64,000 bases of DNA from an uncultured Acidimicrobiales bacterium (GTDB taxonomy: Bacteria > Actinomycetota > Acidimicrobiia > Acidimicrobiales > DATKAS01), in NCBI GenBank assembly GCA_963726495.1, contig CAVSCP010000006.1, positions 140,312 to 204,311 of the forward strand. Reading direction: 5' to 3'. Every line of letters starts with the position of its first letter. The first letter of the stretch is position 1. The notes under the pieces were generated by a model. That model searched no databases. It was given only the letters and a program-made list of their open reading frames with translations, and was not told the origin of the DNA. A program made the position numbers and the translations under genes. Below, piece by piece: positions 3,116-48,953 of this stretch.

Positions 3116-4669
3116 GCGTGAGCCGCGGGTCTCATGAGCTGATGGAGCTGCCGCTCACCCCGATCGACTTCCTCCTCCGAGCGCGGCGCCTCTTCCCCGA
3201 TCGAGAGGGTGTGATCCAGCACGAGGGCGGAGCGCGCGCTCGGGTCTTCACCTACGCCGACATGGCCGAGCGCGCCGCGCGCATGGCGCAGGTCCTGCAG
3301 AACGACTTCGACGTCCGGCCCGGCGACCGCGTCGCGTGGCTCTGCGGCAATCGCCACGAGCTGCTCGAGGCCTACTACGGCGTGCTTCTCGCCGGCGCGG
3401 TGCTGCTTCCCCTCAACATCCGCCTCTCGGTGCACGAGCTGCGCGGACAGCTCGACGACAGCCGCGCCTCGGTGCTCGTCCGCGACGCGACGCTCACCGA
3501 GGTCGACCACCCGGTGCGACAGGTCACGCTCGGCGACGAGTGGGAGAGCAGACTGGCCGCACAGCCCCACTCGTGGATCGAGCCCCCGAACGTCGACGAG
3601 CGTGCCGTTGCCGAGATCTTCTACACGAGCGGCTCGACGGGGAAGCCGAAGGGGGCGATGCTCACCCACCGCGGGCTGTACCTCCACGCGGTGCACTCCG
3701 CCCTCACGTTGAACATCAGCGGCCACGACGTCGTGCTGCACACGATCCCGCTCTTCCATGTGAACGGATGGGGCACCCCGCACTACGTGACTGGGCTCGG
3801 CGGCGTGCACGTGATGCTGCCCCGCTTCGACTCCGCCGAGGTGCTCCGCCTCGTCGAGGCCGAGCGCGTCACGCGGCTGTACCTGGTGCCCGCGATGATG
3901 ACCGCGCTGCTCAACGATCCGACGTTCGAAAGCCGCGACCTGACGAGCGTGCAGCAGCTGTCCGTCGGCGGCGCGCCGACACCGCCCGCGCTCCTCGCCG
4001 AGGCCGAGCGCCGATTCGGGTGCGAGTGCATCTGCGGCTACGGGATGACCGAGAGCGGTCCGCAGATGACGAAGGCGATCGACAAGCCCGGCGAGCCCCG
4101 ATCAGCCCGACGCCGCAGCACGACCGGGATGCCGATCCTCGGCGTCGACCTGCGCATCTTCGACGATGACGACCACGAGCTGCCCGTGGGACGGCGTGAC
4201 CGCGGGCGAGATCAGGTCGCGGTCGAACCACGTGATGGCGGGCTACTGGGAGAGCCCCGAAGACACCGAACGCGCGCTCGAAGGCGGGTGGCTGCACACC
4301 GGTGACGTCGCCACGATCTCGCCGGACGGCTTCTTGACGATCGTCGACCGCAAGAAGGACCTCATCATCTCGGGCGGCGAGAACATCAGCTCGGTCGAGG
4401 TCGAGAACGCGCTCACGGAGCATCCGGCGGTGCTCGAAGCCGCAGTGGTCGGCGTGCCCGACGAGCGATGGGGAGAGGTGCCGCGCGCGTTCGTCGCGCT
4501 GCGCTCCGGTTCTGACGCGTCCCCCGACGAGCTGGTCGCGTTCGTGCGTGCGCGCCTCGCGCACTTCAAGGCGCCCAAGGACGTGCGCATCGTCGATGCC
4601 TTGCCCCGCGGCGGCACGGGCAAGGTGCTGAAGACCGTGCTGCGCGAGGCGGACGTAGCGGCGAGCTAG
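3103..4669 (+). pseudogene. AMP-dependent acyl-CoA synthetase/ligase (FadD-like), one frameshift near 4185
   Basis: Tail of ORF 2425..4305 (from MGFMSVS) carries YTSGSTGKPKGAML, GYGMTE and IFDDDDHELP. ORF 4166..4669 continues WDGVTAGEI..MAGYW..WLHTGD..DRKKDLIISGGENISS..PRGGTGKVLK. The join is at ctgcccgtgggac. The 226 aa upstream of 3103 in ORF 2425 overlap the GDPD gene and are not coding. Confidence 0.85.
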
Positions 4670-5114: not shown

Positions 5115-6567
5115 TCATCGCGGCTCTCCCGTCTCCGGGTGCGTGTCGATCTGGGCCTTCTGCAGCCGGCCCGAGTAGTCGACGTACACCGTCTTGACCT
5201 GGCTGAACTGCTCGATGCCTCGGGTGCCGGCCTCGCGGAACCCGTTGCCGGTGTGCTTGGTGCCGCCGAACGGAAGCGGGATCTCGGCGCCGATCGTCGG
5301 TGCGTTCACGTACACGATTCCCGTGTCGATGCGGTCGACGAGCTGCAGCGCGGCGTTGATGTCCCGCGTGTAGACCGCGGCCGACAGCCCGTACTCGGAT
5401 GCGTTCACGACGTCGACGGCCTCTCCTCGTCGCCCACCTCGATCACCGACAGCACCGGCCCGAACACCTCTTCGCGGGCGATCGTGTGGTCGGGACGCAC
5501 ACCGGTCAGCACCGTCGGAGCGACGAACGCGCCGCCCTCGCAGCCCTCGACCTCGAGCACGTGCCCTCCGGTCACGACGGTGGCGCCCTCGGCGACCGCG
5601 CGCTCGATCATCCCGATGATGCGCTCAGCCGAGCGGCGATCGATCACGGGACCGACGTCGGTCGTGGCGACCGTCGGATCGCCGAGCACGAGCGCCTCGG
5701 CCCGCTTCGCGACGCGTTCGACGACTGCGGTCGCCACCGCGCGGTGCACCACGAGGCGCGACGTCGAGGTGCAGCGCTGGCCCGACGTGCCGAATGCGCC
5801 GAACAGCGCGCCTTCGACGACGAGGTCGAGGTCGGCATCGTCGAGGACGACCATCGCGTTCTTGCCGCCGAGCTCGAGCGACACGAGGCGGGGGCCGGTC
5901 TCCATCGCCCGTGCCGCGACGAGCCGGCCGGTGGGCACCGAGCCCGTGAACGAGAGCGCTCCGACGCCGGGGTGCACGGCGAGCGCCGCACCGGGCTCGC
6001 CGGCGCCGTGGACGACCTGGAGCAGCGCGGCCGGGATGCCCGCGGTCACCAGCGCGTCGACGAACGCATCGGCGCAGAGCGGCGTGTGCTCGGACGGCTT
6101 CAGCACGATCCCGTTGCCGGCGAGCAGCGCCGGGAAGCACTTCCACGACGGGATCGCGACCGGGAAGTTCCACGGCGTGATCATCCCGACCACCCCGATC
6201 GGCTGTCGCGTCGTCCAAGCCATCTTGTTGGACAGCTCGGAGGCCACCACGCTTCCCAGCGCGGCGCGGCCTTGGCCGGCGACGAACCGACCCATGTCGA
6301 CGGCTTCTTGCACGTCGCCTCCCGCCTCGACGAGCACCTTGCCCGCCTCGCGCGCGACGAGCTCCGCGAGCTGGCCCTTGCGGTCGGCGATGACGTCGGC
6401 AGCGCGGGCGATGAGGTCGGCGCGCGCAGGGATCGGGCGGCGAGCCCACTCCCGCTGCGCCTCGCTCGCCGCGCGACCGCGCGGTCGACGTCGGCCGCGG
6501 TTGCCGCGGTGAACGTGCCCAGCACCTCCGCCGGACGGGCCGGGTTGACGGAATCGAATGTCGCCAT
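5115..6567 (-). pseudogene. Aldehyde dehydrogenase family protein, two frameshifts (about 6475 and 5415)
   Basis: Three fragments: MATFDSVNPARPAEVLGTFTAATAADVDRAVA (within ORF 6181..6840); ORF 5405..6337 with GVVGMITPWNFP, LKPSEHTP, ELGGKNA and GQRCTS; ORF 5115..5408 with NASEYGLSAAVYT and PFGGTKHTGNG. My re-translation across 6475 restores AASEAQREWARRPIPARADLIARAADVIADRKGQLAELVAREAGK. Confidence 0.85.
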
Positions 6568-15362: not shown

Positions 15363-16058
15363 ATGCGCAGCGTGGTCGTGACTGGCGGAGCAGGAGCGAT
15401 CGGCGCCGCGGTCATGGAGCGGTTCCGCGCCGAGGGCGACGCGGTGCTCGGTCTCGATCTCCGCGCCGCCGACGACATCGTGGCGTGCGACGTGGCCGAC
15501 GAGCACTCGGTGGCCGCTGCGTTCACCGAGGTGCGCAGCCGGCAGGGCCCCGTCGAGGTGCTCGTGCACTCGGCGGGCATCACCGGTCGAGGCACGGTCA
15601 CCGAGGAGGACCCCGCCACATGGCGACGCATCCTCGAGGTCAACCTGACGTCTGCCTATCTGTGCTGCCGCGAGGCGATCCCCGACATGACCGGGCTCGG
15701 ACGGGGTCGCATCGTGCTGGTCGCGTCGGTCAACGGGAGGTTCGGCGGCAGCGCGCTCTCCGGTCCCGCGTACGCCGCGTCGAAGGGCGGCCTGCTCACG
15801 CTCGGCCGCTTCCTCGCTCGGGAGCACGCGGCGGCCGGCATCACGGTGAACTCGGTCGCGCCGGGCCCGCACGACACTCCGATGTGGACGGCCCTCGACG
15901 CCGACCGCCGTGCGCGGATCCTCGGGATGCTCCCGGGTGGCGACGGACCGGGCGACCCCGCCGACCTCGCGGCCACGATCGTCCACCTGTGCTCGCCCGA
16001 GGCGCGCTACATCAACGGCGCGACGATCGACATCAACGGCGGGCAGTGGATGGGCTGA
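15363..16058 (+). CDS. SDR-family oxidoreductase
   Basis: From ATG 15363 inside ORF 15174..16058. Motifs: VVTGGAGAIGAAV (TGxxxGxG), NLTSAY, YAASKGG (YxxxK) and INGATIDINGG. Confidence 0.85.
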   Translation: MRSVVVTGGAGAIGAAVMERFRAEGDAVLGLDLRAADDIVACDVADEHSVAAAFTEVRSRQGPVEVLVHSAGITGRGTVTEEDPATWRRILEVNLTSAYLCCREAIPDMTGLGRGRIVLVASVNGRFGGSALSGPAYAASKGGLLTLGRFLAREHAAAGITVNSVAPGPHDTPMWTALDADRRARILGMLPGGDGPGDPADLAATIVHLCSPEARYINGATIDINGGQWMG

Positions 16059-16075
16059 CAGCCCGCACGAACCAG

Positions 16076-16106
16076 CCGCGCAACGGGAATCGTTGCGCGG
16101 TAGGGT
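16076..16106 (+). promoter_or_regulatory. Perfect 10-bp palindrome plus TAGGGT -10-like box directly upstream of the antitoxin gene (candidate autoregulatory operator / near-leaderless promoter)
   Basis: CCGCGCAACG-ggaat-CGTTGCGCGG (16076..16100) abuts TAGGGT (16101..16106). The GTG start is at 16113, only 6 nt after the -10 box. Confidence 0.4.
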
Positions 16107-35749: not shown

Positions 35750-36427
35750 ATGAGCCGTCTCCCCAAGCTGGTGATCTTCGGCCGACAAGGCGCGGGCAAG
35801 GGCACGGTGGGCCATCGCGTCGCCGCCCACCTGGGCATCCACCACATCTCGACCGGCGAGATCCTGCGGCGGGAGATGGCCGAGGCAAGCCCTCTGGGCC
35901 TCCAGGTGCAGGCGTTCGTCGACCACGGCGAGCTCGTGCCCGACGACGTGATGCTGAAGGTGATCGAGCACCGCATCGGGCATCCCGAGGTCTCCCGCCG
36001 CGGCTTCCTCATGGACGGGTTCCCCCGCACCGTCGAGCAAGCCGACGGGTTCGCCGCGATCCTGGGTGACGAGCCGCTCCAAGCCGCGATCCAGATCGAA
36101 GTGCCGACCGACGTGGTGCTGGCCCGCATCCTCGGCCGCCGCGTCTGCCCTGTGTGCGGCACGACGACCTCGGCGCCGCGCGAGGTCGTCTCGGTGCCGT
36201 GTCCTCGCGGCGACGGCTGGGCGGTGCGGCGCAAGGACGACACCGAAGACGCGGTCCGGCGCCGGCTCGCGCTGTACGACGAGGAGTCGGGACCGTTGGT
36301 CCGGTGGTTCGCGGACCGTGGCCTGCTGGTCACGGTCGACGGCGCAGCGAGCCCTGAAGCCGTCTACGAGGCGACCCTCGCCGCGCTCCGCCCGGCGCTC
36401 TGGGGCGACAGTCTGGCAGTGGGCTAG
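35750..36427 (+). CDS. adk: Adenylate kinase (paralog outside a ribosomal-protein context)
   Basis: From ATG 35750 in ORF 35666..36427. P-loop GRQGAGKGT, ISTGEILR, GFLMDGFPRT and LID CPVCG...CPRGDG...RKDD. Confidence 0.85.
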   Translation: MSRLPKLVIFGRQGAGKGTVGHRVAAHLGIHHISTGEILRREMAEASPLGLQVQAFVDHGELVPDDVMLKVIEHRIGHPEVSRRGFLMDGFPRTVEQADGFAAILGDEPLQAAIQIEVPTDVVLARILGRRVCPVCGTTTSAPREVVSVPCPRGDGWAVRRKDDTEDAVRRRLALYDEESGPLVRWFADRGLLVTVDGAASPEAVYEATLAALRPALWGDSLAVG

Positions 36428-36429
36428 TG

Positions 36430-36521
36430 AAGGGCGCCGCAGTGCGGCGCCGGGTGCGCGAAGCACCGATTGTCGAGCGAAGCGAGCGGGAGCCGCCCGA
36501 AGCGAAGCGGAGGCCGGCTAC
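36430..36521 (+). repeat. 92-nt structured intergenic repeat, copy A
   Basis: Aligns without gaps to 48062..48153 (10 mismatches in 92 by my hand count). It has hairpin GGCGCCGC-agt-GCGGCGCC (36433..36451), hairpin GGTGC-gcgaa-GCACC, and several GCGAAGC motifs. It fills the whole spacer between the adk stop (36427) and the ppk2 stop (36518), and its last bases supply the ppk2 TAG. Confidence 0.7.
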
Positions 36522-37321
36522 CGGACAACGATCTTCTCGATCCCCGGCTCGGGCTCGGGCAGCTTCGGGTCCATGCGTTCGAGGGCGTGCACGACGAGCT
36601 CTGACACCGCGACCGTCCGCACCCACTTCCGGTCGCCGGGGACGACGTGCCACGGCGCCCACTTCGTCGACGTCTCCGTCAGCGTCTCCTCGTACGCGTG
36701 GTTGTACTGATCCCACATCGCCCGGTCGTCGAGGTCGGCCTTCCGGAACTTCCAGCTCTTCTCGGGATCGTCGATGCGCCGCTGAAGCCGTCGACGCTGC
36801 TCGTCCGCCGAGATGTGGAGGAAGACCTTCACGATCGTCGTGCCCTCGTCGCACAACATCCGCTCGAACTCGCGGATGTGACGGAGACGCGGCCGCCACA
36901 CCGACTCGGGCGCGAGCGCTCGCACCCGGACCGCGATCACGTCCTCGTAGTGAGATCGGTTGAAGATGCCCATCTCGCCGTGCGCGGGGCAGACCTCGTG
37001 CACGCGCCACAGGAAGTCGTGCGCGGCGTCGCGACCGACGGGCGCCTTGAACGAGGTCACCCGGCAACCCTGCGGGTTCACACCTGACAGCACGGTGCGG
37101 ATCGTGCCGTCCTTGCCCGAGGCGTCCATCCCCTGCAGCACGAGGAGCAAGCTGCGGCGCTGCTCGGCCCACAGCCGGTTCTGCAAAGTCTGCAGCCGAG
37201 CCAGCAAGTCGCGGTGCAGCTCCGCCGCCTCGGGCTTGCCGGCGAGGCCGAGACGGTCGGCCGGATCGCGGCTCGACAGAGCAGCCGGAGCACCGGGCGC
37301 GACACGTGTCGACTCGAACAT
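36518..37321 (-). CDS. ppk2: Polyphosphate kinase 2 family protein (single PPK2 domain)
   Basis: Intact 267-aa ORF with LQGMDASGKDGTI (Walker A-like), FNRSHYEDV and WAPWHVVPGDRKW. Confidence 0.85.
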   Translation of the reverse strand: MFESTRVAPGAPAALSSRDPADRLGLAGKPEAAELHRDLLARLQTLQNRLWAEQRRSLLLVLQGMDASGKDGTIRTVLSGVNPQGCRVTSFKAPVGRDAAHDFLWRVHEVCPAHGEMGIFNRSHYEDVIAVRVRALAPESVWRPRLRHIREFERMLCDEGTTIVKVFLHISADEQRRRLQRRIDDPEKSWKFRKADLDDRAMWDQYNHAYEETLTETSTKWAPWHVVPGDRKWVRTVAVSELVVHALERMDPKLPEPEPGIEKIVVR

Positions 37322-37426
37322 GTGAATGACGTTACGACCGGTCGCGCCGCCACTGAATGCTCATCGACGGCAGGTACGGTCCGACCGACTGGTGCGACGG
37401 GGGTCGCGCCGCAACAGGGGGCAACG

Positions 37427-39184
37427 ATGAGATTGAGGCATGTTCGTCCGCGGCATCGCGCCGCGCTCGCACTCGGCGCCTCGCTGCTCGCGTTCGGGTT
37501 GCTCGCCGCCGCGTGCGGAAGCGACGACAGCGGGAGCAGCGCGGGCACCACAGCCGCCGGAGGCGGCGGCGCCAGCACGACAGCCGGAGGTGGAGCCGCA
37601 ACGACGCAGCGGCAGCGGCCGAGACGCCGACGCCGGGCGGCAAGCTCGTGTTCGGCCTCGAGGCCGACACCGGCAGCCCGTGGGAGCCGTCGAAGGCGCT
37701 GCTCGCGATCTCGGGTCACACCGTCATCGCGGTCGGTGTTCGATCCGCTCGCGCTCGCGACGGTCGACGGCAAGGTCGAGCCGTACCTCGCCGAGTCGAT
37801 CACGCCGAACGCGGACTACACGGTATGGACGATCAAGGCCCGCTCGGGCGTCACGTTCCACGACGGCACGCCGTTCGACGGCGCTGCGATCGTCGACAAC
37901 CTCACTCGCCAGTTCAAGTCGTTCCTGACCGGGAAGGTGTTCTCGGACGTGGCGACCAATGCTGACGGCTCACCGCAGATCGTGGTCGACCCCGCGGACC
38001 CGATGTCGGCGCAGATCACGATGAAGCGCTCGTGGGTGCCGTTCCCGATCTACCTCACGGGCCAGATCGGCTACATGGCGAGCCCGACGTGGATGAAGCC
38101 GCGGCCGACAAGGACCCGGCGCTCGAGTCCAAGCCGGTCGGCACGGGTCCGTTCGTCTTCAAGGACTACAAGCCGGGTGAGTCGTTCGACGCGACGAAGA
38201 ACCCGAACTACTGGAACAAGCCGTACCCGTACCTCGACGAGGTCGAGTTCCGCGTGATCCCCGACGGCAAGACGCGCGCCTCGGCGCTCGAGGCCGGCGA
38301 CGTGAACATGATCCACACGGACGACGGCGAGAACATCGCCAAGTTCCGCAGTGAGGCCGACCAGTTCCCGATGACCGAGGTGTCGGCGTTCGGGGAGACG
38401 GGCTACACGCTGCTGAAGGTCGACGACCCCGGCGAGCCCGCTGTCCGACGCGCGCGTGCGCTGCGCGATGGCGTACGCGACCGACGAGCAGGCGCTCATC
38501 GACAAGCTCGGTGCCGGCATCAACAAGGTCGCGAGCGGTCCGTTCTCACCGACCCAGGTCGGCTACTTGCCCGACACGGGCTACCCGCTGAAGCAGGACA
38601 TGGCCAAGGCGCAAGAGCTCGTCAAGTCGTACAAGGCCGACCACCCGGGCCCGCTGAACATCAACCTGTCGACGACGCAGGACGCGACCGCACTCGTCAT
38701 CGCTCAGGCCCAGCAGGAGTTCTTCAAGCAGGCCGGCTTCGACAACGTGCAGATCAGCCAGATCGAGCAGGCGAAGTACATCCTCACGGCGCTGCAAGGT
38801 GACTTCCAGGCCTTCCAGTGGCGCAACCACGGCGGTCTCGACCTCGACGCCCAGTACATCTGGTGGTCGTCCGAGAACGCGCTCCCGGTGGGTCAGCTCG
38901 CGCTGAACTTCGGGCGCATCAAGGACCCGGTGATCGACAAGGCGCTCTCCGACAACCGCGGGGCTACCGACCCGGCGGTGAAGAAGCAGCTCGCCGAGAC
39001 GGTCAACAAGGAGTTCGCGACCCAGTGCTACAACATCTGGGGCGACTGGGACCTCTGGGGTCTGCCGCACACGCCCGACGTCCACGGCATCGAGGACTTC
39101 ACCCTCCCGTCGGGTGACAAGGCGTGCCTCTGCAACGGCATCGCCGGCGTCTTCAACATCCAGTCGGTCTGGATCAAGCAGTAG
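37427..39184 (+). pseudogene. ABC peptide/nickel-type (family 5) substrate-binding lipoprotein, paralog 1, about 4 frameshifts
   Basis: MRLRHVRPRHRAALALGASLLAFGLLAAACGSDDSGSS (lipobox) in ORF 37214..38257. GGKLVFGLEADTGSPWEPSK (ORF 37357). KPVGTGPFVFKDYKPGES..NPNYWNKPYPYLDEVEFRVIPD (ORF 38032). C-terminus in ORF 38456..39184, ending SVWIKQ. Confidence 0.8.
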
Positions 39185-39217
39185 CCCACCCCGCGTAACC
39201 AGCGAGAACACGCGCTT

Positions 39218-39246
39218 CGGCGGGCGTCCCATGGGGGCGTCCGCCG
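39218..39246 (+). terminator. Terminator-like hairpin after SBP paralog 1
   Basis: CGGCGGGCGTCCC-atg-GGGGCGTCCGCCG forms a 13-bp stem if two G-U pairs are allowed. It lies 34 nt after the stop. There is no clear U-tract. Confidence 0.4.
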
Positions 39247-39267
39247 TTCGCGCGCACACGCCACGCG

Positions 39268-39296
39268 TTGACACCGCGCCAATGCCGCAATAGGTT
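39268..39296 (+). promoter_or_regulatory. Sigma-70-type promoter for SBP paralog 2
   Basis: TTGACA (39268..39273), 17-nt spacer, TAGGTT (39291..39296), read directly. The same boxes recur upstream of paralog 3. Confidence 0.5.
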
Positions 39297-39434
39297 CCGC
39301 GCCATCGTGCGTGTGGCGGGGGTCACATTCCACGGGTCCGCGACAGGGGGTGAGCTGGCAGAGGGAACCAGCCGCACGGACGGATAGCAGCAATGGACTG
39401 CGGGCGAGGGGCCCGCGTGAGTGGGGGAGTCTGC

Positions 39435-41182
39435 GTGAACCGACCGATCTCGAAACGACGCCGTACCGGCGCGCTCCTGGTTGCCGGGGGCCTCGCTTTG
39501 GCCCTCGTGGCCGCGGCGTGCGGGAGTGATGACAGCGGGAGCAGTGCCGGCACCACCGCAGCCGGCGGTGGAGCAGCGACGACAGCGGCGGGCGGTGCCG
39601 CGACGACGGCAGCTGCCGCAGCCGAGACGCCAGTGGCCGGGCGGCAAGCTCGTGATGGGCATCGAAGCCGACACAGGAAGCCCGTGGGAGCCCTCCAAGG
39701 CGCTCCTCGCGATCTCTGGTCACACCGTGATCCGGTCGATCTACGACTCGCTGACGATCGTCACCGACGAAGGCAAGGTCGTGCCCTACCTCGCCGAGTC
39801 CGTCGAGCCGAACGCGGACTACACGGTCTGGACGATCAAGGTGCGCTCCGGCGTCACGTTCCACGACGGCACGCCGCTGAACGCGGACGCCGTCATCGAC
39901 AACCTGAACCGTCACCTCGAAGTCGTTCCTCACGGCCGCGGTGCTCACCGACGTCGCGAAGGACGCCGAGCGGCGCCCCGCAGATCGCGAAGGTCGACGA
40001 CCTCACCGTCGCGATCACCATGAAGCGGCCGTGGGTGCCGTTCCCGCTCTACCTCTCGGGTGCGATCGGCTACATGGCCAGCCCGACGTGGCAGGCAGCC
40101 GCCGACAAGGATCCCGCGCTCGAGTCCAAGCCGGTCGGCACCGGTCCGTTCGTCTTCAAGGACTACAAGCCGGGCGAGTCGTTCACGGCGACGAAGAACC
40201 CGAACTACTGGAACAAGCCGTACCCGTACCTCGACGAGGTCGAGTTCCGCGTCATCCCCGACGCGCTCACTCGGTCCTCCGCGCTCGAGGCCGGTGACGT
40301 CGACCTGATCCACACGACGAACGGCGACACGATCAAGAAGTACCGGGGCGAGCCGGATCAGTTCCCGATGACCGAGTGGACCAAGTTCGGCGAGACGGGC
40401 TACACGCTCCTGCACGTCACGCAGGAGGGCTCACCGCTCACCGATCCGCGCGTGCGCTGCGCGATGGCCAACGCCACTGACAACCAGGCGATCATCGACA
40501 AGATCAACGCCGGCATCTCGCAGATCGCCAACGGGCCCTTCTCACCCGGCCAGCTCGGCAACGAGGCGGAGAACGGGTTCCCGCTCAAGCAGGACATGGC
40601 CAAGGCGCAGGAGCTCGTCGCGAGTCGTACAAGGCGGACCATCCCGGCCCGCTCAACATCAACCTCTCGACGACCCAGGACGCGACGAACCTGATCATCG
40701 CCCAGGCCCAGCAGGAGTTCTTCAAGGAAGCCGGCTTCGACGACGTGCAGATCAGCCAGATCGAGCAGGCGAAGTACATCCTCACGGCGCTTCAGGGCCA
40801 CTTCCAGGCCTTCCAGTGGCGCAACCACGGCGGGGTCGACCTCGACGCCCAGTACATCTGGTGGCACTCGTCGAACGCGCTCCCCGTCGATCAGCTCGCG
40901 CTGAACTTCGGGCGCATCAAGGACCCGGTCATCGACCAGGCCCTCGACGCGAACCGCGGCGAGACCGACCCGGCCAAGAAGAAGGAGCTGGCCGAGACGG
41001 TCGACAAGCAGTTCGCGACGCAGTGCTACAACCTCTGGGGCTCGTACACGGTGTGGGGGCTCGCCCACACGCCGAAGGTGCAAGGCCTCGAGGACTTCGT
41101 GGCACCGTCGGGCGAGAAGATCTGCCTCTGCAACGGCATCCAGGGCGTGATCAACATCAGCTCGATCTGGATCAAGCAGTAG
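39435..41182 (+). pseudogene. Family-5 ABC substrate-binding lipoprotein, paralog 2, about 4 frameshifts
   Basis: GTG 39435 (VNRPISKRRRTGALLVAGGLALALVAAACGSDDSGSS), preceded by GGGGGAG. Fragments in ORFs 39393..40694, 39481..40023 and 40745..41182. It is collinear with paralog 1 and ends SSIWIKQ. Confidence 0.8.
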
Positions 41183-41200
41183 CGCGACGCCGCGACCGCA

Positions 41201-41230
41201 CGACGGGCGCCCCGAGCGGGGCGCCCGTCG
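41201..41230 (+). terminator. Terminator-like hairpin after SBP paralog 2
   Basis: CGACGGGCGCCCC-gagc-GGGGCGCCCGTCG, a perfect 13-bp stem. There is no clear U-tract. Confidence 0.45.
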
Positions 41231-41254
41231 TCGCGCGTCTGTAACGGGGCTGCA

Positions 41255-41284
41255 TTGACACCGTGGCAACTGCAGTCGTAGGTT
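41255..41284 (+). promoter_or_regulatory. Sigma-70-type promoter for SBP paralog 3
   Basis: TTGACA (41255..41260), 18-nt spacer, TAGGTT (41279..41284). Confidence 0.5.
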
Positions 41285-41396
41285 CCGGTCGACCATGCAT
41301 GTGGCGGGGGTCACATCCTGCAGAGGGCGTCCAAAGGGGTGGGCGCAGCACGCCTGAGGGCTCTCGCCCAAGCGTCCACACAACAGAGGGGGAAGT

Positions 41397-43144
41397 GTGC
41401 ATCGATCGTCCGGAAGATCTCGCCGAGCTGTCTTCGGCATCGCCGGGGCGTTGCTCGCCTTCGGCGTGCTCGCCGCCGCGTGCGGCAGTGATGACAGTGG
41501 CAGCAGTGCCGGCACCACCGCGTCAGGCGGCGGGGCGGCAACGACCGCGTCGGGCGGCGCGGCCACGACTGCGGCAGCGGCCGAGACGCCGGTGGCGGGC
41601 GGCAAGCTCGTCGTCGGCATCGAGGCCGACACCGGCAGCCCGTGGGAGCCGTCCAAGATGCTCTGCGCGACGTCGTGCTACGTGACCATCGGCAGCGTGT
41701 ACGACACGCTCACGTCGGTCACCGAAGACGGCAAGTTCGTGCCGTACCTGGCCGACTCGGTCACCCCGAACGCGGACTACACGGTCTGGACCTTCCACGC
41801 TCGGGACGGCGTCAAGTTCCACGACGGCACGCCGTTCGATGGCGGCCGCGATGGTCGACAACATGAAGCGGCAGATCGCGTCGTTCCTGACCGGCAAGGT
41901 CTTCAGCGACGTCGCGACGAACGCCGACGGCTCGCCGCAGGTCGTCGCTCACCGATCCGATGACGATGACGATCACGATGAAGCGACCCTGGGTCGTCTT
42001 CCCGCTCTACCTCGCCGCCCAGCCGGGCATGATGGCGAGCCCGACGTGGCTCGCGGCGGCCGACAAGGACCCGACGCTCGAGTCCGAAGCCCGTGGGCAC
42101 CGGTCCGTTCGTCTTCAAGGACTACAAGCCGGGCGAGTCGTTCACCGCGACGAAGAACCCCGACTACTGGAACAAGCCCTACCCGTACCTCGACGAGTTC
42201 GAGACCCGGGTCATCCCCGACGCCCTGACCCGCGCCTCCGCGCTCGAGGCCGGCGACGTCGATCTCATCCAGACCACGAACGGCGACACGATCAAGAAGT
42301 TCCGTGGCGAGGCCGACAAGTTCCCGATGCTCGAGGAGACCGACTACGGCGAGACGGGGTACACCCTGCTCAACGTGGGCGACCCGACGTCACCCCTCGC
42401 GGACCAGCGGGTGCGCTGCGCGATGGCGTACGCCACCGACAACCAGGCGATCATCGACAAGGTCGATGCCGGCGTGCTCGAAGATCGCGAACGGTCCGTT
42501 CTCACCGGCGCAGGTCGGCCACCTCGACGACAGCGGCTTCCCGGTGAAGCAGGACATGGCCAAGGCGCAAGAGCTCGTCGCGAGTCGTACAAGGCCGACC
42601 ATCCGGGCCCGCTGAAGATCAGCCTGTCGACGACGCAAGACGCGACGAACCTGATCATCGCCCAGGCCCAGCAGGAGTTCTTCAAGCAGGCCGGCTTCGA
42701 CGACGTGCAGATCACGCAGATCGAGCAGGCGAAGTACATCCTCACTGCGCTCCAGGGAACCTTCCAAGCGTTCCAGTGGCGCAACCACGGGGGCTACGAC
42801 CTCGACAGCCAGTACATCTGGTGGACCGCGGACAACGCCCTGCCCGCCGCCTCAGCTCGCGCTCAACTTCGGGCGCATCAAGGACCCGGTGATCGACAAG
42901 GCGCTCGCCGACAACCGCGGCGCGACCGACCCGGCACAGAAGAAGGCCGACGCCGAGACGGTCAACAAGGAGTTCGCGACGCAGTGCTACAACCTCTGGG
43001 GCTCGTGGACAGGTCTGGGGGCTGCCGCACACTCCGAACGTCATGGACGTCGGCGTGTTCATCAACCCCGACGGCTCGAAGCAGAGCCCCGGGACCGGTG
43101 GCACCTTCAACCAGCGCTCGGTCTGGATCAACCCGAACGCCTGA
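41397..43144 (+). pseudogene. Family-5 ABC substrate-binding lipoprotein, paralog 3, at least 5 frameshifts
   Basis: GTG 41397 (HRSSGRSRRAVFGIAGALLAFGVLAAACGSDDSGSS), preceded by AGAGGGGGAAG. Fragments in ORFs 41397, 41839, 41960, 42093, 42304 and 42889. My re-translation of the end gives WGLPHTPNVMDVGVFINPDGSKQSPGTGGTFNQRSVWINPNA-TGA. Confidence 0.8.
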
Positions 43145-43151
43145 CGCATGA

Positions 43152-43177
43152 CACGACACGTCTTTCGACGTGCCGTG
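43152..43177 (+). promoter_or_regulatory. Intercistronic hairpin between SBP paralog 3 and the permease genes (attenuator/processing-site candidate)
   Basis: CACGaCACGTC-tttc-GACGTGcCGTG, 10 paired positions with one mismatch. It is followed by the RBS GGGAGGGAGAGG and ATG 43208. Confidence 0.4.
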
Positions 43178-43207
43178 AGGGAACCTTAGGGAGGGAGAGG
43201 TGACGGC

Positions 43208-44165
43208 ATGAGATACGTACGCCAAAAGCTGATCCAGCTGGTGATCGTGGTGTTCGCCGTCACCTTCCTCACCTTCATCTCGATCAACCTGTTGCCCGGG
43301 GATCCCGCCATCTTCAAGGCGGGCCCCGGTGCGACAGACGCGCAGGTCGAGCAAGTGCGTCACGACCTCGGCCTCGACAAGCCGATCCCCGTCCAATACG
43401 GCATCTGGCTGAAGAAGATGGCGACGCTCGACTTCGGCGTCTCGCTCGGCTTCAACACGCCGGTGAGCGAGCTCGTGCGCAACCGCTTGCCGGTGACGCT
43501 CGTCGTGCTCTTCTACTCCTTGATCCTGTCGCTCATCATCGCAATCCCCTTAGGGGTGTTCAGCGCGTATCGCTCCGGCAGCACATTCGACCGAGCGAGT
43601 AGCACCATCGCGTTCGGGTTGTTATCCGTGCCGAGCTACATCATCGGCGTGGTGCTCCTCTACTTCTTCGCCGTGAAGTGGGGGTGGTTCCCGGCCATCT
43701 CCAAAGACGTGAGCCTGTTCCAAGAACCCGGGCGAGCACTTCAAGGCTTACGGCCTCCCGGTGATCACGTTGACCGTTGCCCAGATCGCCATCTACATGA
43801 GGTTGCTCCGCACCGACATGCTCGCGACGCTGCAGATGGACTTCATCACGATGGCCCGCGCGAAGGGCATGTCCACTCGGCACATCCTCTTCCGCCACGC
43901 GTTGCGGCCATCGCTCTTCTCGTTGATCACCGCGGCGGCCGTCAACGTCGGTACCCTCATCGGCGGTGCCGTCATCGTCGAGCAGATCTTCGCTCTCAAC
44001 GGCATGGGTCAGCTCACGGTCGAAGCCATCGGCCGCCGTGACTTCCCGGTGGTGCAGGTCTGCGTGACGATCTTCGCCGTCGGGTTCGTGTTCGTGAACT
44101 TCTTGGTCGACATCGCATACGCCTTCATCGATCCGAGGATCCGCCATGCAAGAGCTCTCGCATAG
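43208..44165 (+). pseudogene. ABC transporter permease (DppB/OppB-like), frameshift(s) near 43730
   Basis: ORF 43208..44041 N-terminal half (MRYVRQKLIQLVIVVFAVTFLTFISINLLPGDPA). ORF 43761..44165 C-terminal half (DFITMARAKGMSTRHILFRHALRPS = EAA motif region). Confidence 0.8.
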
Positions 44166-45171
44166 CCACGGCCACACTCTCGACCCTTCGACCCAGGACA
44201 CGCCCCTCTTCGGGGCCGAGGTCGATCTCGCGCCTGGCGAGATCATGCCGCTGGGCGTCGTCACCGACTCGCTCGACGGGGCCTACGTCAAACCGAAGAA
44301 GCGCGGTCGGGTCACGTTCTGGGTCGCCTCCGGCTGGATGGCGCTCGTGATCTTCCTCGCCGTGTTCGCGGACTGGCTGCCGTTCGTGCACTCGTACAGC
44401 GCGGGCAGCGTGCTCGACGGCAAGGAGCCGCCCTCGCTCTCCCACTGGATGGGGACCGACGTCAACGGGCGCGACATCTTCAGCCGGTGGGTGTACGGAG
44501 CACGCGTGTCGCTCACGATCGGCTTGGCGGCGATCGTGTTCGGGCTGCTGATCGGAGGCTTCCTCGGGCTGCTCGCGGGCTACCACCGCAAGCGCACCGA
44601 CACGCTCATCGTGACGGTCATGGACATCCTGCTGGCGTTCCCGGCGCTGGTCCTCGCGCTGATGCTCGTGACGTTCGGCCAGGCGCCCGACGGCGGCGAT
44701 CGCCACATCTCGCTGGGGCCGATCCACTTCACCTTGAGCCGGTTCGCGCTGGTGGTGTTCGTGCTCGGCATCCTGTCGATCCCACCGCTGACTCGAATCG
44801 TGCGAGCGAGCACGCTCTCGTTGTCGAACCGCGAGTTCGTGATGGCGTCTCGAGCGCTCGGAGCGAAGAACAGCCGCGTCATCAGCCGGGAGATCCTCCC
44901 GAACGTGATCCCGCCGATGCTCTCGTTCGCGCTGACCGGTCTCGCTGTCCTGATCGTCGCGGAGGGGGCGCTCGCCTTCCTCGGCCTGTCCGTACGACCG
45001 CCGACCCCTTCGTGGGGGTTCATGATCTTCGAGGGAAAGAACCCACTGCAGACGGGGCAATGGTGGATCGCCTTGCTCCCCGCCCTCTTCATGTTCCTCA
45101 CGATCCTCGCGATCAACATGATCGGTGACGTCGCGGCCAAGCGCTTCTCCATCCGGGACGCTGTCGGGTGA
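44146..45171 (+). CDS. ABC transporter permease (DppC/OppC-like)
   Basis: Intact 341-aa ORF with HWMGTDVNGRDIFSRWVYGARVSL and REFVMASRALGAKNSRVISREILPNV. Confidence 0.85.
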   Translation: MQELSHSHGHTLDPSTQDTPLFGAEVDLAPGEIMPLGVVTDSLDGAYVKPKKRGRVTFWVASGWMALVIFLAVFADWLPFVHSYSAGSVLDGKEPPSLSHWMGTDVNGRDIFSRWVYGARVSLTIGLAAIVFGLLIGGFLGLLAGYHRKRTDTLIVTVMDILLAFPALVLALMLVTFGQAPDGGDRHISLGPIHFTLSRFALVVFVLGILSIPPLTRIVRASTLSLSNREFVMASRALGAKNSRVISREILPNVIPPMLSFALTGLAVLIVAEGALAFLGLSVRPPTPSWGFMIFEGKNPLQTGQWWIALLPALFMFLTILAINMIGDVAAKRFSIRDAVG

Positions 45172-46325
45172 AGAAGGGACAGCTCTCCAAGAACATCGCG
45201 GATCACCGCACCGCGACGGGCCCGCTGCTCGAGGTCGAAGACCTCAAGACCCACTTCCGCACCGATCTCGGCATGGTGCGCGCCGTCGACGGAGTGTCGT
45301 TCACTCTCGACCGCGGCAAGACGATCGGCATCGTCGGCGAGTCAGGGTCGGGCAAGACGATCCTGTCGCGCTCGGTCATGGGACTGCTGCCGAGCCGGAA
45401 CGTGGTGCGTGAAGGCCGCGTGGCGTTCGAAGGCCAAGAGATCGGCGACCTAGCCCCGCCCGCGATGCGCGAGATCTGGGGCACCGAGATGGCGATGATC
45501 TTCCAGGACCCGATGACGTCGCTCAACCCGGTGATGAAGATCGGACGACAGATCACCGAGTCGCTCAAGTACCACCTGCACATGTCGAAGAGCGACGCGA
45601 GGCACACGGCAGTGTCATTGCTGACGTCGGTCGGCATCCCCGAGCCGACTCGGCGGCTCGACGAGTACCCGCACCAGCTGTCCGGCGGCATGCGCCAGCG
45701 CGTCACGATCGCGATCGCGCTCGCCTGCGGCCCGACGATTCTCTTCGCCGACGAGCCCACCACTGCGCTCGACGTCACGGTCCAGGCGCAGATCCTCGAC
45801 CTCCTCCAAGATCAGCAGCGAGACCGCAACATGTCGATGGTGCTCGTCACCCACGACCTCGGCGTCGTCGCGGGGCGCACCGACGACATCGCCGTCATGT
45901 ACGCGGGCAAGATCGTCGAGAAGGCACCCACGACCGCGCTCTTCTCGAACGTGCGCATGCCCTACACCGAGGCACTGCTCCAGTCGATCCCCAAGCTCGA
46001 GAACAAGAGCCACACGCGCCTGCAGGTCATCGCAGGCCGCCCGCCCGACCTGATCCATCCGCCCAAGGGTTGCCGGTTCAGCCCGCGCTGCCCCTACGCG
46101 CAAGACCGTTGCCGCGAGGAGGAGCCCCCGTTGCAGGAGGCCGAGACACCAGGGCATCTGTTCGCGTGTTGGTACCCGGTGGGCACCCCCGAAGGCGCTG
46201 ACGCGCTGGCCCGCAACCAGGCCGCGCTCGCGGGCAACCGCGCATCGAATGGTGCAGCCTCGACGCCGACGACCTCGACGCCGACGACCTCGACGCCGAC
46301 GACCTCGGCGCCGGCGGAGGCCTAG
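45168..46325 (+). CDS. ABC transporter ATP-binding protein (DppD/OppD-like) with Thr/Pro-rich C-terminal tail
   Basis: Intact ORF. Walker [27 protein letters not shown], and a C-terminal oligopeptide-ATPase Cys motif [14 protein letters not shown]. Confidence 0.9.
46260..46304 (+). repeat. Perfect 15-bp tandem repeat x3 inside the ATPase 3' end
   Basis: TCGACGCCGACGACC repeated three times head to tail, encoding (S)TPTT x3. Confidence 0.9.
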
Positions 46326-47414
46326 GTGGCAGGCACCGGCACCGCCCACCTCCGCGACTCCCCCGACACCCTGCTGCGTGTCGAGGGGCTCGTCGTCGAG
46401 TTCCCTCTCGGCAACACCGGCCTGCGGGTGAACGCGGTCTCGGGCATCAGCTTCGACGTGATGAAGGGCGAGACCCTCGGGCTCGTCGGCGAGTCGGGCT
46501 GCGGCAAGTCGACGACCGGTCGAGCGATCATGCAGCTGCCTCATCCGACGAGCGGCAGCATCATCTTCGACGGACACGAGATCACCTCGCTCGACGACGA
46601 GGATGTCCGCAAGCTCCGCCCGCAGATGCAGATGATCTTCCAGGATCCGATCTCGTCGCTGAACCCGCGTCGCAAGGTCCGCGAGATCGTGGCTGAGCCG
46701 CTGGCGATCTGGAAGGTGGGCACCGAGCAGGAGCGGGCCGCGCGGGTGAACGAGGTGCTCGAGGACGTCGGCATCGATCCCGCGATCGCGGCCGACCGCC
46801 GTCCGCATCAGTTCTCGGGCGGCCAGTGCCAGCGCATCTGCGTGGCCCGCGCGCTCGTCATGGACCCGAAGCTCGTCATCTGCGACGAGCCCGTCTCCGC
46901 ACTCGACGTGTCGGTGCAGGCCCAGATCCTCAACCTGCTCGAGGACATGAAGGCCCGGTACGGCCTCACCATGATCTTCATCGCCCACGACCTCGCCGTC
47001 GTGAAGAACATCAGCGACCGCGTGTGCGTGATGTACCTCGGCAAGATCTGCGAGGTCGCGCCGCCCGACGACCTGTACCTCGCGCCGGCGCACCCGTACA
47101 CCGACCTGCTGCTCAGGTCGATCCCGGTGCCCGACCCGACCGTGAAGCCCGACCCGGAGGGCCGCATCACGGGCGAGCTGCCGTCGCCGGTGTTCCCGCC
47201 CAGCGGATGCCGGTTCCGTACCCGCTGCCCCAGGGCGGCGGACAGGTGCGCCGCCGAGGAGCCACAGGTCCGCGATCTCGGTGGCGGCCACTTCGTGGCC
47301 TGCCACTTCCCGATCGGTCATGCCGCAGCGCCGCCGACCGTGGTCACCGACACCGTGCCCGTCGCGGCTTCAGTGGGCGACGCAGCCACGAACGGGGACT
47401 CGCACACGAGCTGA
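46326..47414 (+). CDS. ABC transporter ATP-binding protein (DppF/OppF-like)
   Basis: Intact 362-aa ORF with GESGCGKST, FSGGQCQR, ICDEPVSALD and CRFRTRCPRAADRC. Confidence 0.9.
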   Translation: MAGTGTAHLRDSPDTLLRVEGLVVEFPLGNTGLRVNAVSGISFDVMKGETLGLVGESGCGKSTTGRAIMQLPHPTSGSIIFDGHEITSLDDEDVRKLRPQMQMIFQDPISSLNPRRKVREIVAEPLAIWKVGTEQERAARVNEVLEDVGIDPAIAADRRPHQFSGGQCQRICVARALVMDPKLVICDEPVSALDVSVQAQILNLLEDMKARYGLTMIFIAHDLAVVKNISDRVCVMYLGKICEVAPPDDLYLAPAHPYTDLLLRSIPVPDPTVKPDPEGRITGELPSPVFPPSGCRFRTRCPRAADRCAAEEPQVRDLGGGHFVACHFPIGHAAAPPTVVTDTVPVAASVGDAATNGDSHTS

Positions 47415-47436
47415 CCGCTCCGAGACGGGAGGGCCA

Positions 47437-48051
47437 ATGGCCCAGATGGTGCGTGTCCGCACGCGACTGACTCGAGCAACGCGGCGAGAGCAGATCATCG
47501 ACGCGGCGGTGAGGGTGTTCCACGGCCGAGACCCGGCCGACGTCACGTTCGAGGAAGTGGCCGACGCTGCCGGCGTGTCGCGGGCGCTCGTCTACAACTA
47601 CTTCGGAGATCGGCGCGGGCTCGTCGCCGCGGTGTTCCAGCGTCACACCGATCGCTTGCACGCCGCCGTGGTCGCCGGGTTCGACGGCAACGAGTCGTTC
47701 CGGGAGGCGATCGAGAAGGTCGTGCGCCAGCACTTCAGCTACGCGCGCGACAACCCTGACGGCTACCGCAACGCGACCGGCGACGGGCCGTCACGTCACC
47801 CCGAAGTGATCGAAGAGCGCCTCGCGATGCTGGGGGCCGCGTTCGGCGGTGGCCCTGAGGCGCGGCTGGTCGCTCGGTCGGTTCTCGCGCTCGTCGAGGC
47901 GGCCGCGTTGCGGTGGCTCGAGCGCGGTGACCTCGAGATCGAGCGCGCGATCGAGGTGACGACCGAGCTCATGTGGGGTGGCATCGAGGCGACCGAGCGC
48001 GTCGGCCTCCACCACTACCGCGTCTGGGCCCACGAATTGCAGGACGTGTAG
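47437..48051 (+). CDS. TetR/AcrR-family transcriptional regulator
   Basis: ATG 47437 after GGGAGGG, within ORF 47281..48051. N-terminal HTH REQIIDAAVRVFHGRDPADVTFEEVADAAGVSRALVYNYF. Confidence 0.85.
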   Translation: MAQMVRVRTRLTRATRREQIIDAAVRVFHGRDPADVTFEEVADAAGVSRALVYNYFGDRRGLVAAVFQRHTDRLHAAVVAGFDGNESFREAIEKVVRQHFSYARDNPDGYRNATGDGPSRHPEVIEERLAMLGAAFGGGPEARLVARSVLALVEAAALRWLERGDLEIERAIEVTTELMWGGIEATERVGLHHYRVWAHELQDV

Positions 48052-48061
48052 AGGCGGGTCA

Positions 48062-48153
48062 AATGGCGGCGCAATGCGCCGCCGGGTGCGCGAAGCACCG
48101 ATTGTCGAGCGAAGCGAGCAGGAGCCGGCGAAAGCGCAGCGGAGGACGGCTAC
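48062..48153 (+). repeat. 92-nt structured intergenic repeat, copy B
   Basis: Same orientation as copy A. Hairpin GGCGGCGC-aat-GCGCCGCC (48065..48083) carries one compensatory base-pair flip relative to copy A. A 37-nt identical core is CGGGTGCGCGAAGCACCGATTGTCGAGCGAAGCGAGC. It fills the spacer between the tetR stop (48051) and the hydratase stop (48150), supplying the latter's TAG. Confidence 0.7.
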
Positions 48154-48953
48154 TGATTCGTGTAACGCGGTGGGCGCTTCTCGAGGAAGGCGCGCATCGC
48201 CTCCTGATGGTCGGTCGTCGCGCTGGCCATGATCTGCTGACGGTTCTCGAGGTCGATCGCCGCCTGCATCCCTGGGATCTCGAGCGCCGACCACATGCCC
48301 TCCTTCGTGAGGGCGACTCCGAACGGCGTGTTCTTCATCACGAGCTCGGCCTCGGCGTAGGCGGCATCGAGGATGACCTCGTCGGGCACCACGTCGATGA
48401 CGAGACCGAACTTCTGCGCCTCGGCCGCGGTGAAGATCCGGCCCGTGAGCATCAGCTCCTGTGCGTGCGCGGCGCCGATGAGGCGGGGCAGCAGCCAGCT
48501 GGTGCCGATGTCGCACGCCGACAATCCGATGCGGATGAACGCCGCGTTGAACTTCGCCGACTCCGCCGCGATGCGGATGTCGGAGCCGAGCACCAGTGCG
48601 AACCCTCCGCCGGCGGCGGGACCGTTGACCGCGGCGATGACGGGCTGCGGCAGGGAGCGCAGGTGCGGGATGAGCGCGGCGATCTGCTTCTGCACGGCGA
48701 AGCCCGACTGCGTGGGGCCGAAGCCCTCGGTGTGGGGTGCCCGTCCGTAGCCGCCGAGATCGAGCCCGGCGCAGAACCCTCTCCCCTGCCCGGTGAGGAC
48801 CACGACGCGGCAGCTGGCGTCGGTGGCGACGTCGTCGAGCGCGTCGTGCAGCTGGCCGATGAGCTCGGCCGTCATCGCGTTCAGCTTGTCGGGCCGGTTC
48901 AGCGTGATGAGCCGCACGCCTTCGCGTGGGGTCGAGACGAGCACAGGGTCCAT
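48150..48953 (-). CDS. Enoyl-CoA hydratase/isomerase (crotonase) family protein
   Basis: Intact 267-aa ORF with ITLNRPDKLNAM, VVLTGQGRGFCAGLDL and AAVNGPAAGGGFAL. Confidence 0.9.
   Translation of the reverse strand: MDPVLVSTPREGVRLITLNRPDKLNAMTAELIGQLHDALDDVATDASCRVVVLTGQGRGFCAGLDLGGYGRAPHTEGFGPTQSGFAVQKQIAALIPHLRSLPQPVIAAVNGPAAGGGFALVLGSDIRIAAESAKFNAAFIRIGLSACDIGTSWLLPRLIGAAHAQELMLTGRIFTAAEAQKFGLVIDVVPDEVILDAAYAEAELVMKNTPFGVALTKEGMWSALEIPGMQAAIDLENRQQIMASATTDHQEAMRAFLEKRPPRYTNQ

Follow-up and report, generated by a model that had tools for sequence, protein, structure and literature searches.

A lineage-specific family of dispersed, structured intergenic repeats in uncultured soil Acidimicrobiales

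We examined two 92-nt stretches within 64,000 nt of DNA from an uncultured Acidimicrobiales bacterium (this whole analysed stretch is called the window below), and we show that they are resident copies of a lineage-specific, dispersed family of ~96-nt structured repeats carried by a clade of uncultured soil Acidimicrobiales. The two stretches, namely copy A (36430-36521) and copy B (48062-48153), both lie on the + strand, exactly where a first-pass annotation of this DNA, made from its letters alone, had placed them. The same annotation had raised the idea of a repeat family, which is borne out by a total of 69 copies in 44 genome loci (denoted by L and a number), one metagenome contig, and the window. 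The family is previously undescribed and is of an already known type, being a structured intergenic repeat that is REP/BIME-like (repetitive extragenic palindromic sequence/bacterial interspersed mosaic element) or TRIT-like.

Extent, anatomy, and conservation of the family

A 26-mer taken from the core of the element was scanned exactly against 185,579 species, each represented by one genome, and it was found at 44 loci in eight species-level metagenome-assembled genomes (MAGs), all of uncultured Acidimicrobiales (MFD series); no other genome matched. A covariance model built on 33 full-length copies and applied with a cut-off of 46 bits identified 68 copies in the 416 kb formed by the 44 loci and the window, just two of which are in the window (copy A, matched at 36430-36525 with 104.2 bits; copy B, matched at 48062-48157 with 105.4 bits), and one further copy in the metagenome contig. 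The 69 copies fall into about 50 arrays, and several loci contain two or three units arranged head to tail, with periods of 92-107 nt (92, 96, 100, and 107 nt). Viral contigs and plasmids contained no match to the core or to the element, and a phage or plasmid origin is therefore not indicated. Further, Rfam 15 gave no match at gathering score in the whole window and only noise for the element at E<=10, its best sub-threshold match reaching 14.4 bits against a threshold of 37.3, and searching the literature for a repeat of Acidimicrobiia, or for a comparable element of actinobacteria, returned nothing relevant. The family adds an undescribed intergenic repeat to the poorly studied uncultured soil Acidimicrobiales (Microflora Danica MAGs), and the covariance model can be used to annotate it.

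The two window copies, which lie 11,632 nt apart, align without gaps at 82 of 92 positions; the ten mismatches, a count already given correctly in the first-pass annotation, are at 36432, 36437, 36442, 36447, 36488, 36496, 36498, 36499, 36505, and 36514. An identical core of 37 nt had also been claimed; the core is present, with a corrected length of 40 nt for its longest run (36448-36487). A 38-nt core occurs exactly twice in the window, where 0.00 occurrences are expected from 100 dinucleotide-preserving shuffles, and the 19-nt core GATTGTCGAGCGAAGCGAG has two exact matches, as compared with 0.04 expected.

The unit comprises four small hairpins, namely hairpin 1 (HP1), HP2, a mini-hairpin in the core, and HP3, and extends from the HP1 base to the last HP3 pair at 36433-36521 in copy A and at 48065-48153 in copy B, both on the + strand, as are the hairpins listed below. 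Throughout the family, HP1 is a GC palindrome of 8-10 bp whose loop is AGT or AAT; it is represented in copy A by the 8-bp palindrome GGCGCCGC-AGT-GCGGCGCC (36433-36451) and in copy B by GGCGGCGC-AAT-GCGCCGCC (48065-48083), both of which fold, and its pairs covary across the family. HP2, GGTGC-GCGAA-GCACC, is nearly invariant in the family; its presence in copy A (36453-36467) and copy B (48085-48099), as noticed before, is confirmed by sequence and by folding. The core GATTGTCGAGCGAAGCGAG follows directly at 36468-36486 and, as an exact match, at 48100-48118; it can pair as C-G / G.A / A.G / G-C / C-G around a GAA loop, and it is kept even in copies with HP2 replaced. HP3 has the form GCCG-nnn...nnn-CGGC with a purine-rich loop, and pairs through a variable stem at 36489-36521 in copy A and at 48121-48153 in copy B; in most copies, it is followed by a purine-rich tail, GACGAGGA. 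Copies A and B represent different HP1 and HP3 subtypes. The heptamer GCGAAGC, of which several had been reported in the element, occurs three times in copy A, including once in HP2, and twice in copy B; the whole window contains 15 occurrences on the + strand and 16 on the - strand.

Selection on structure had been proposed from a single compensatory pair flip in HP1. The flip is real (GGCGCCGC/GCGGCGCC in copy A versus GGCGGCGC/GCGCCGCC in copy B), and it is accompanied by a second compensatory change that had been missed, in the outer HP3 stem (CGG..CCG in copy A versus CAG..CTG in copy B). Across the family, two-sided changes at pairs are well above those in shuffled alignments, which upholds the proposal: (i) in the model-fitted alignment of the 69 copies, where 90% of cells are paired, 15 of 28 pairs have changed on both sides, as compared with 5.0±1.0 in column shuffles (0/500 reach 15); (ii) slid controls gave at most 5 pairs with two-sided changes; and (iii) a MAFFT alignment pointed in the same direction, with 7 pairs versus 3.8±0.9. 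The HP1 and HP3 stems are kept by compensatory change, and HP2 and the 19-nt core are kept as sequence. At the HP3 base (alignment columns 87/130 and 88/129), tandem G.A/A.G mismatches are present in 53 and 47 of 67 copies and are exchanged jointly for G-C/C-G in 12 copies, which suggests that these mismatches are structural rather than unpaired.

Separately from the full units, solo HP1-like palindromes with an ATT loop are found in inverted orientation a few nucleotides 3' of full copies (L020, ~5345-5365; L021, ~1420-1440; L041, ~4620-4640; and L042, ~708-730), and HP1 can therefore exist as a separate module.

The resident copies are conserved to the same degree as non-synonymous positions. 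Copy A is identical to its L023 ortholog at 90 of 92 positions (P=0.001), while identity in the flanking genes is 88-89% at third codon positions and 97.6-97.8% at positions 1 and 2. Copy B is identical to its L045 ortholog at 82 of 85 positions, as compared with 78-82% at third codon positions and with 7 of 13 positions in the spacer beside it (P=1.6e-5); moreover, two of its three differences (GGAC to CGTC) improve HP3 pairing. Since the paralogs A and B (82/92) are less alike than either is to its ortholog, homogenisation among copies does not account for this conservation, the simplest reading of which would be purifying selection on each resident copy. Such constraint leads us to prefer a host-level role over a purely selfish element, and it provides material for the question of whether repeats of the REP, TRIT, or BIME kind are maintained for the host or by their own propagation.

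Gene ends, stop codons, and filled and empty sites

The context of the arrays was obtained by inspecting the flanks and by means of a rough reading-frame caller that uses the GC content of each codon position; this caller misclassified some contexts (that of L004 was put right on inspection). For the majority of the 49 arrays, a co-directional open reading frame (ORF) ends 0-30 nt ahead of HP1; 22 of the 49 lie between convergent ORFs; and, where the neighbouring genes are in tandem, the sense orientation predominates over the antisense by ~3 to 1. The neighbours are unrelated housekeeping genes (DtxR, PFK, GH1, GSDH, methylmalonyl-CoA mutase, ArgJ, Pup ligase, and ABC transporters), which rules out a pathway-specific regulator. 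All 23 flanking proteins scanned with Pfam are housekeeping or transport proteins, the genes between paired arrays are likewise housekeeping genes, and clustering of 296 ORFs from the loci revealed no element-linked gene, just orthologs and common paralog families (AMP-binding, ABC, methylmalonyl-CoA mutase, ArgJ, Pup ligase, and helicase). Neither tRNA nor tmRNA was found near the arrays.

Between tandem genes and in promoter regions, the purine-rich tail GACGAGGA(G) is located 5-15 nt ahead of the downstream start codon (L014, 5519-5625; L004, 2497-2545; L008; and L037), where it looks like a Shine-Dalgarno sequence.

Comparisons between related genomes revealed sites with and without the element. 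The window itself contains an empty site of 22 nt (16057-16078) in a region (12.5-21.7 kb) that is syntenic with L018 and L027 at 76-81% identity; L018 contains one copy at this site, and L027 contains two copies and a partial copy, in both cases directly behind a stop codon. Additional filled sites are those of L014 (empty in L005), L017 (empty in L012, where the convergent stops are 3 nt apart, TGA-GCT-TCA), and L003 (empty in L024 and L036, with 12 nt between the convergent stops). Unit number also differs among several orthologous arrays. We conclude that the family has reached many intergenic sites, where it appears to amplify locally into head-to-tail arrays. Such polymorphism is also seen in miniature inverted-repeat transposable elements (MITEs), which had been suggested at first, but the MITE reading does not hold up against the controls: the best terminal inverted identity averages 0.52, as compared with 0.48 for shuffled termini, and the longest k-mer shared by the flanks is no longer than for unrelated arrays, with no target-site duplication at any of the filled/empty pairs. 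A search for RAYT/TnpA-REP genes, likewise suggested earlier, found no Y1/HUH (RAYT/IS200) motif in six-frame translations of the 416 kb around the copies, which is a weak test, and no transposase was present among the 23 flanking proteins scanned with Pfam.

Just past the insertion site at window 16057-16078 and ahead of the next gene, a separate hairpin, GCGCAACG-GGAAT-CGTTGCGC, is kept in three genomes (window, 16079-16099; L018, ~4385-4407; and L027, ~3806-3826).

Each window copy had been said to donate the TAG stop of a minus-strand gene, namely PPK2 (stop at 36518-36520, within the 3' strand of copy A HP3) and an enoyl-CoA hydratase (stop at 48150-48152, within the 3' strand of copy B HP3). 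Both stops do lie in element-homologous positions. At these positions, GGCGAC is found in 44 of the 69 copies, whereas GGCTAC is limited to the two window loci and their orthologs (L023, L006, and L045); the two differ in one base, T in place of the consensus G, so that CGA reads CTA here and the minus strand reads TAG. Because copies A and B are of different subtypes, the change arose or was selected twice. Donation in the strict sense does not stand for the hydratase, since nine orthologs lacking the element (70-83% amino-acid identity) have the ending ...YTNx and a TGA stop at the identical codon position; the hydratase stop was therefore replaced by the element, with the length of the protein unaltered. 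Gene ends beside copies thus need careful reading, as two window genes take their stop from element-homologous bases.

An association with TAG extends beyond the window. Among stop codons within 45 nt of an element end, 22 of 40 (55%) are TAG, as compared with 34 of 180 (19%) elsewhere in the same DNA (P=1e-5), in a count that covers loci L001-L044 and the window and includes orthologous loci. Upstream of ~20 of the 49 arrays is a TAG, which lies at a distance of 1-16 nt from HP1 and follows a G, C, or T. In three filled/empty comparisons, TGA in the empty site corresponds to TAG in the filled site, a switch that needs two substitutions, and one comparison shows no switch. If the association holds up, it will be a testable clue to the insertion mechanism.

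One possible mechanism, which we regard as distinctly unlikely, is a new type of single-stranded DNA (ssDNA) mobile unit, with stop codons as its homing target. The 35 nt of HP2 and core, near-invariant and with two GCGAAGC mini-hairpins, would form the recognition site of an enzyme, HUH-type or other, that would insert the unit at or into stop codons and rebuild TAG on one or both strands. Homing of this kind would account for the TAG excess at both ends and the TGA-to-TAG switch, as well as for the packing of copies between convergent genes with stops 3-12 nt apart. A TA-dinucleotide target (IS630-like) was also considered, on account of the TAG excess, and was rejected as a general rule: the stop codon at empty orthologous sites is TGA, and one of the filled sites lies away from any stop codon.

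On the minus strand of L033 (~2940-2975), an older, partial copy that breaks off in its HP3 loop is succeeded by a full copy, and the junction reads GCGG-TAGCG-GGCGGCGC; TAG therefore precedes HP1 even where a stop codon is not needed.

Candidate roles and likeness to known repeats

We consider it probable, on balance, that the element is a dispersed repeat with resident copies kept by the host as a hairpin module at transcript 3' ends, on either strand. The hairpins of a resident copy would form in the 3' ends of the flanking transcripts of both strands and would define or protect those ends, be it by blocking 3'-5' exonucleases, by assisting factor-dependent termination, or by insulating convergent transcription. 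Enterobacterial REP elements are thought to act as such 3'-end modules, and TRIT has been proposed to do likewise in mycobacteria. The copies thereby bear on how high-GC actinobacteria without U-tract terminators define the 3' ends of their mRNAs. A bidirectional terminator, as proposed in the first-pass annotation, is plausible and unproven: about half of the arrays are convergent and the hairpins fold on both strands, but no U-tract follows. A canonical intrinsic terminator was rejected because neither strand has a U-tract after the hairpin, and, with the signals of intrinsic termination missing, we favour protection or definition of the 3' end over simple intrinsic termination.

Several points weigh against a 3'-end module. 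No U-tract or terminator-like site was found on either strand around copy A or B, and, as mycobacterial RNA polymerase is reported to need a U-tract at intrinsic terminators (PMC3993855), direct intrinsic termination is doubtful. A few arrays are antisense to their flanking genes or lie in a divergent promoter region, as in L014, where a copy (5519-5616) lies 7 nt ahead of a start codon. The predicted folding energies (z-scores of -0.5 to -1.2 as RNA and -1.7 to -2.1 as DNA) are ordinary for sequence of 70% GC, so that the case for structure rests on covariation. In helix cells, G.U (15) and A.C (9) are equally common (P=0.31); strand-specific selection on RNA, considered by means of these counts, was accordingly set aside as not significant, no single RNA strand being favoured. 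Moreover, the near-invariance of the core, which is partly inflated because the loci were retrieved by an exact 26-mer out of that core, implies sequence-specific recognition by some factor and is left unexplained by a pure hairpin barrier. Finally, for these uncultured organisms, a role at the RNA level is something that we infer.

The alternatives to a 3'-end module account for part of this evidence each. We regard as unlikely, although the least so among them, that the element is mobile, non-autonomous, and purely selfish (MITE-, REPIN-, or PATE-like), with its enzyme encoded elsewhere in the genome, no host function, and a location that reflects insertion tolerance. Such an element would be expected to leave dispersed copies beside unrelated genes, filled and empty sites, and copy-number variation, as found here; the near-invariant 35-nt segment could be the recognition site of a transposase; GCGAAGC is known as a very stable ssDNA mini-hairpin (PMC13037366), and the predicted folding stands out slightly more for DNA than for RNA; and an insertion-site effect is indicated by the excess of TAG at both ends. 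It is opposed by the terminal inverted repeats and target-site duplications, which are not above control levels, by the results of the Y1/HUH and transposase scans described above, and by arrays that are head-to-tail rather than inverted doublets. What decides most for us is that the resident copies are conserved far beyond synonymous sites, with orthologs closer than paralogs, which transposability alone does not predict.

Recognition of the core could instead occur on double-stranded or extruded DNA. A chromosomal protein (nucleoid-associated, gyrase, or recombinase-like) would then use the element as its binding or organising site, a role that has been proposed for BIMEs, and the core would be the recognition sequence. 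The conservation of core and HP2 as sequence, without covariation, across genomes with genes 76-81% identical is in keeping with this, as are the lack of strand asymmetry in wobble pairs and the copies in non-terminator contexts. We give it little credence, however, since the stop-codon bias and the co-orientation with the upstream gene, seen in most tandem contexts, would have no obvious reason, and the covariation of HP1 and HP3 fits intramolecular pairing better than a duplex protein site; we also know of no candidate chromosomal protein for the element. A stand-alone small RNA gene, which had been listed among the initial suggestions, or a gene-specific cis-regulatory RNA (riboswitch or attenuator) would fit a conserved multi-hairpin structure with covariation that is conserved at orthologous loci. 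Nonetheless, we find no support for a small RNA and judge this option very improbable: the element begins as little as 1-16 nt behind a stop codon and has no promoter-like site, its flanking genes are functionally unrelated, its tandem copy number varies between near-identical loci, and no Rfam family matches it, even at E<=10.

Among known systems, REP, BIME, and REPIN sequences share with the family that they are high-copy, structured intergenic repeats, formed by GC-rich imperfect palindromes located mostly downstream of genes, in arrays, and conserved within a lineage. REPs reside mostly between unidirectional and convergent ORFs, and roles in mRNA 3'-end stability and termination have been proposed for them (PMC3733652). 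The initial label "REP-like" therefore pointed to the right neighbourhood with regard to location, clustering, and proposed RNA roles. The differences lie in the unit: a REP is a single 20-40-nt palindrome, whereas the unit of the family is a 96-nt composite of four different hairpins. The feature of REP size is HP1, a 19-nt palindrome that stands solo in a few places, and the conserved repeated unit is ~96 nt. REPINs and BIMEs consist of inverted or alternating units, whereas all arrays of the family are head-to-tail on one strand. REPs are also associated with RAYT genes, none of which turned up in the motif scan of the 416 kb. The GTAG tag of REPs has no fixed counterpart in the family, and the survey's listed phyla (PMC3733652) do not include the host phylum. 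Membership among GTAG- or CGTC-tagged REPs was considered, as GACG and CTAC abut HP3, the former corresponding to a minus-strand CGTC in 44 of the 69 copies. It was rejected on the published stem, loop, and tail features, as CGTC REPs have an 8-9-bp stem starting with A-T pairs, a 4-5-nt loop, and a CCA tail (PMC3733652), which the family lacks.

TRIT, described from Mycobacterium, is a palindrome conserved in sequence; its 147 copies overlap the ends of genes at about position -8, and the authors of the description infer an unknown factor from the sequence conservation (PMC3152330). The family has in common with it a high-GC actinobacterial host, bidirectionality, a tight association with gene ends, and no classical U-tract logic; like TRIT, it presents a conserved palindrome at or overlapping stops, with hairpins that fold on both strands. 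In this comparison, made by description, TRIT is a single hairpin reported only in Mycobacterium (PMC3152330), while the family has a different sequence, four hairpins, tandem arrays, and presence/absence polymorphism.

MITEs such as Correia/NEMIS and ERIC resemble the family in being ~100 nt long, non-coding, dispersed, and foldable, and they sometimes supply gene-end or regulatory signals; they differ in that the family has neither terminal inverted repeats nor a target-site duplication, and no related full-length insertion sequence was seen around the copies. Mycobacterial interspersed repetitive units (MIRUs), reportedly described by Supply et al. in 1997, are said to be actinobacterial units of ~50-100 bp that lie head to tail in intergenic spacers with variable copy number. 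The defining feature of a MIRU is a short ORF overlapping with the neighbouring genes of an operon. A MIRU-like ORF or other coding potential was rejected for the family, the unit lengths of 92, 96, 100, and 107 nt not all being multiples of three, and the family differs further in being hairpin-based, with about half of its arrays between convergent genes. As for the GCGAAGC heptamer, d(GCGAAGC) is an extraordinarily stable DNA mini-hairpin, a property of the oligonucleotide (PMC13037366); it is present two or three times per unit, and in HP2 it competes with a longer 5-bp stem.

Genes around the window copies and the 11.6-kb block

The flanking genes were identified from ORFs and Pfam and are those named in the first-pass annotation. 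Copy A lies between an adenylate kinase gene (+ strand; TAG stop at 36425-36427, 5 nt ahead of HP1) and the PPK2 gene (- strand), and copy B lies between a TetR regulator gene (+ strand; TAG stop at 48049-48051) and the enoyl-CoA hydratase gene (- strand). Each copy had been said to fill its spacer exactly, which fails for copy B: a non-conserved stretch of 13 nt (48052-48064), outside the element, separates the TetR stop from HP1. Between the copies are Dpp/Opp-type ABC genes and three paralogs of the substrate-binding protein (SBP) family SBP_bac_5, which constitute a separate tandem duplication with a 2.0-kb period.

As the two copies are direct repeats, it had been suggested that they bound the 11.6-kb ppk2/SBP/Dpp/tetR block as a unit that could be excised or duplicated, which we now hold to be extremely unlikely. 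Apart from the shared orientation and the spacing of 11,632 nt, the suggestion could draw on the GC content of the block, which is 0.64-0.67 over the SBP and permease genes (window 38000-46000) and 0.70-0.72 in the flanks. The copies are, however, of different HP1 and HP3 subtypes, with 82/92 identity and no identical run longer than 40 nt, and they belong to a family dispersed next to unrelated genes, so that two of them within 12 kb are unremarkable and need no special explanation. Moreover, L023 matches copy A and the first part of the block collinearly at 95% identity, L006 also carries copy A, and L045 retains copy B at the corresponding TetR/hydratase junction. The two junctions are therefore older than these lineages and have remained stable, and the bracketing of the block is coincidental, which removes the suggestion of the transporter block as a repeat-bounded mobile unit.

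Each of the three SBP_bac_5 paralogs (window 37214-43151) is broken across two or three reading frames, and the window differs from the 95%-identical L023 by 16 gap openings in 2.9 kb, which suggests either long-read indel errors or pseudogenes and calls for caution with single-base indels in copies of the element. Lastly, the 3' end of an ABC ATPase gene (45168-46325) contains ~3 tandem repeats of a 15-nt unit, GACGCCGACGACCTC, at window 46245-46307.

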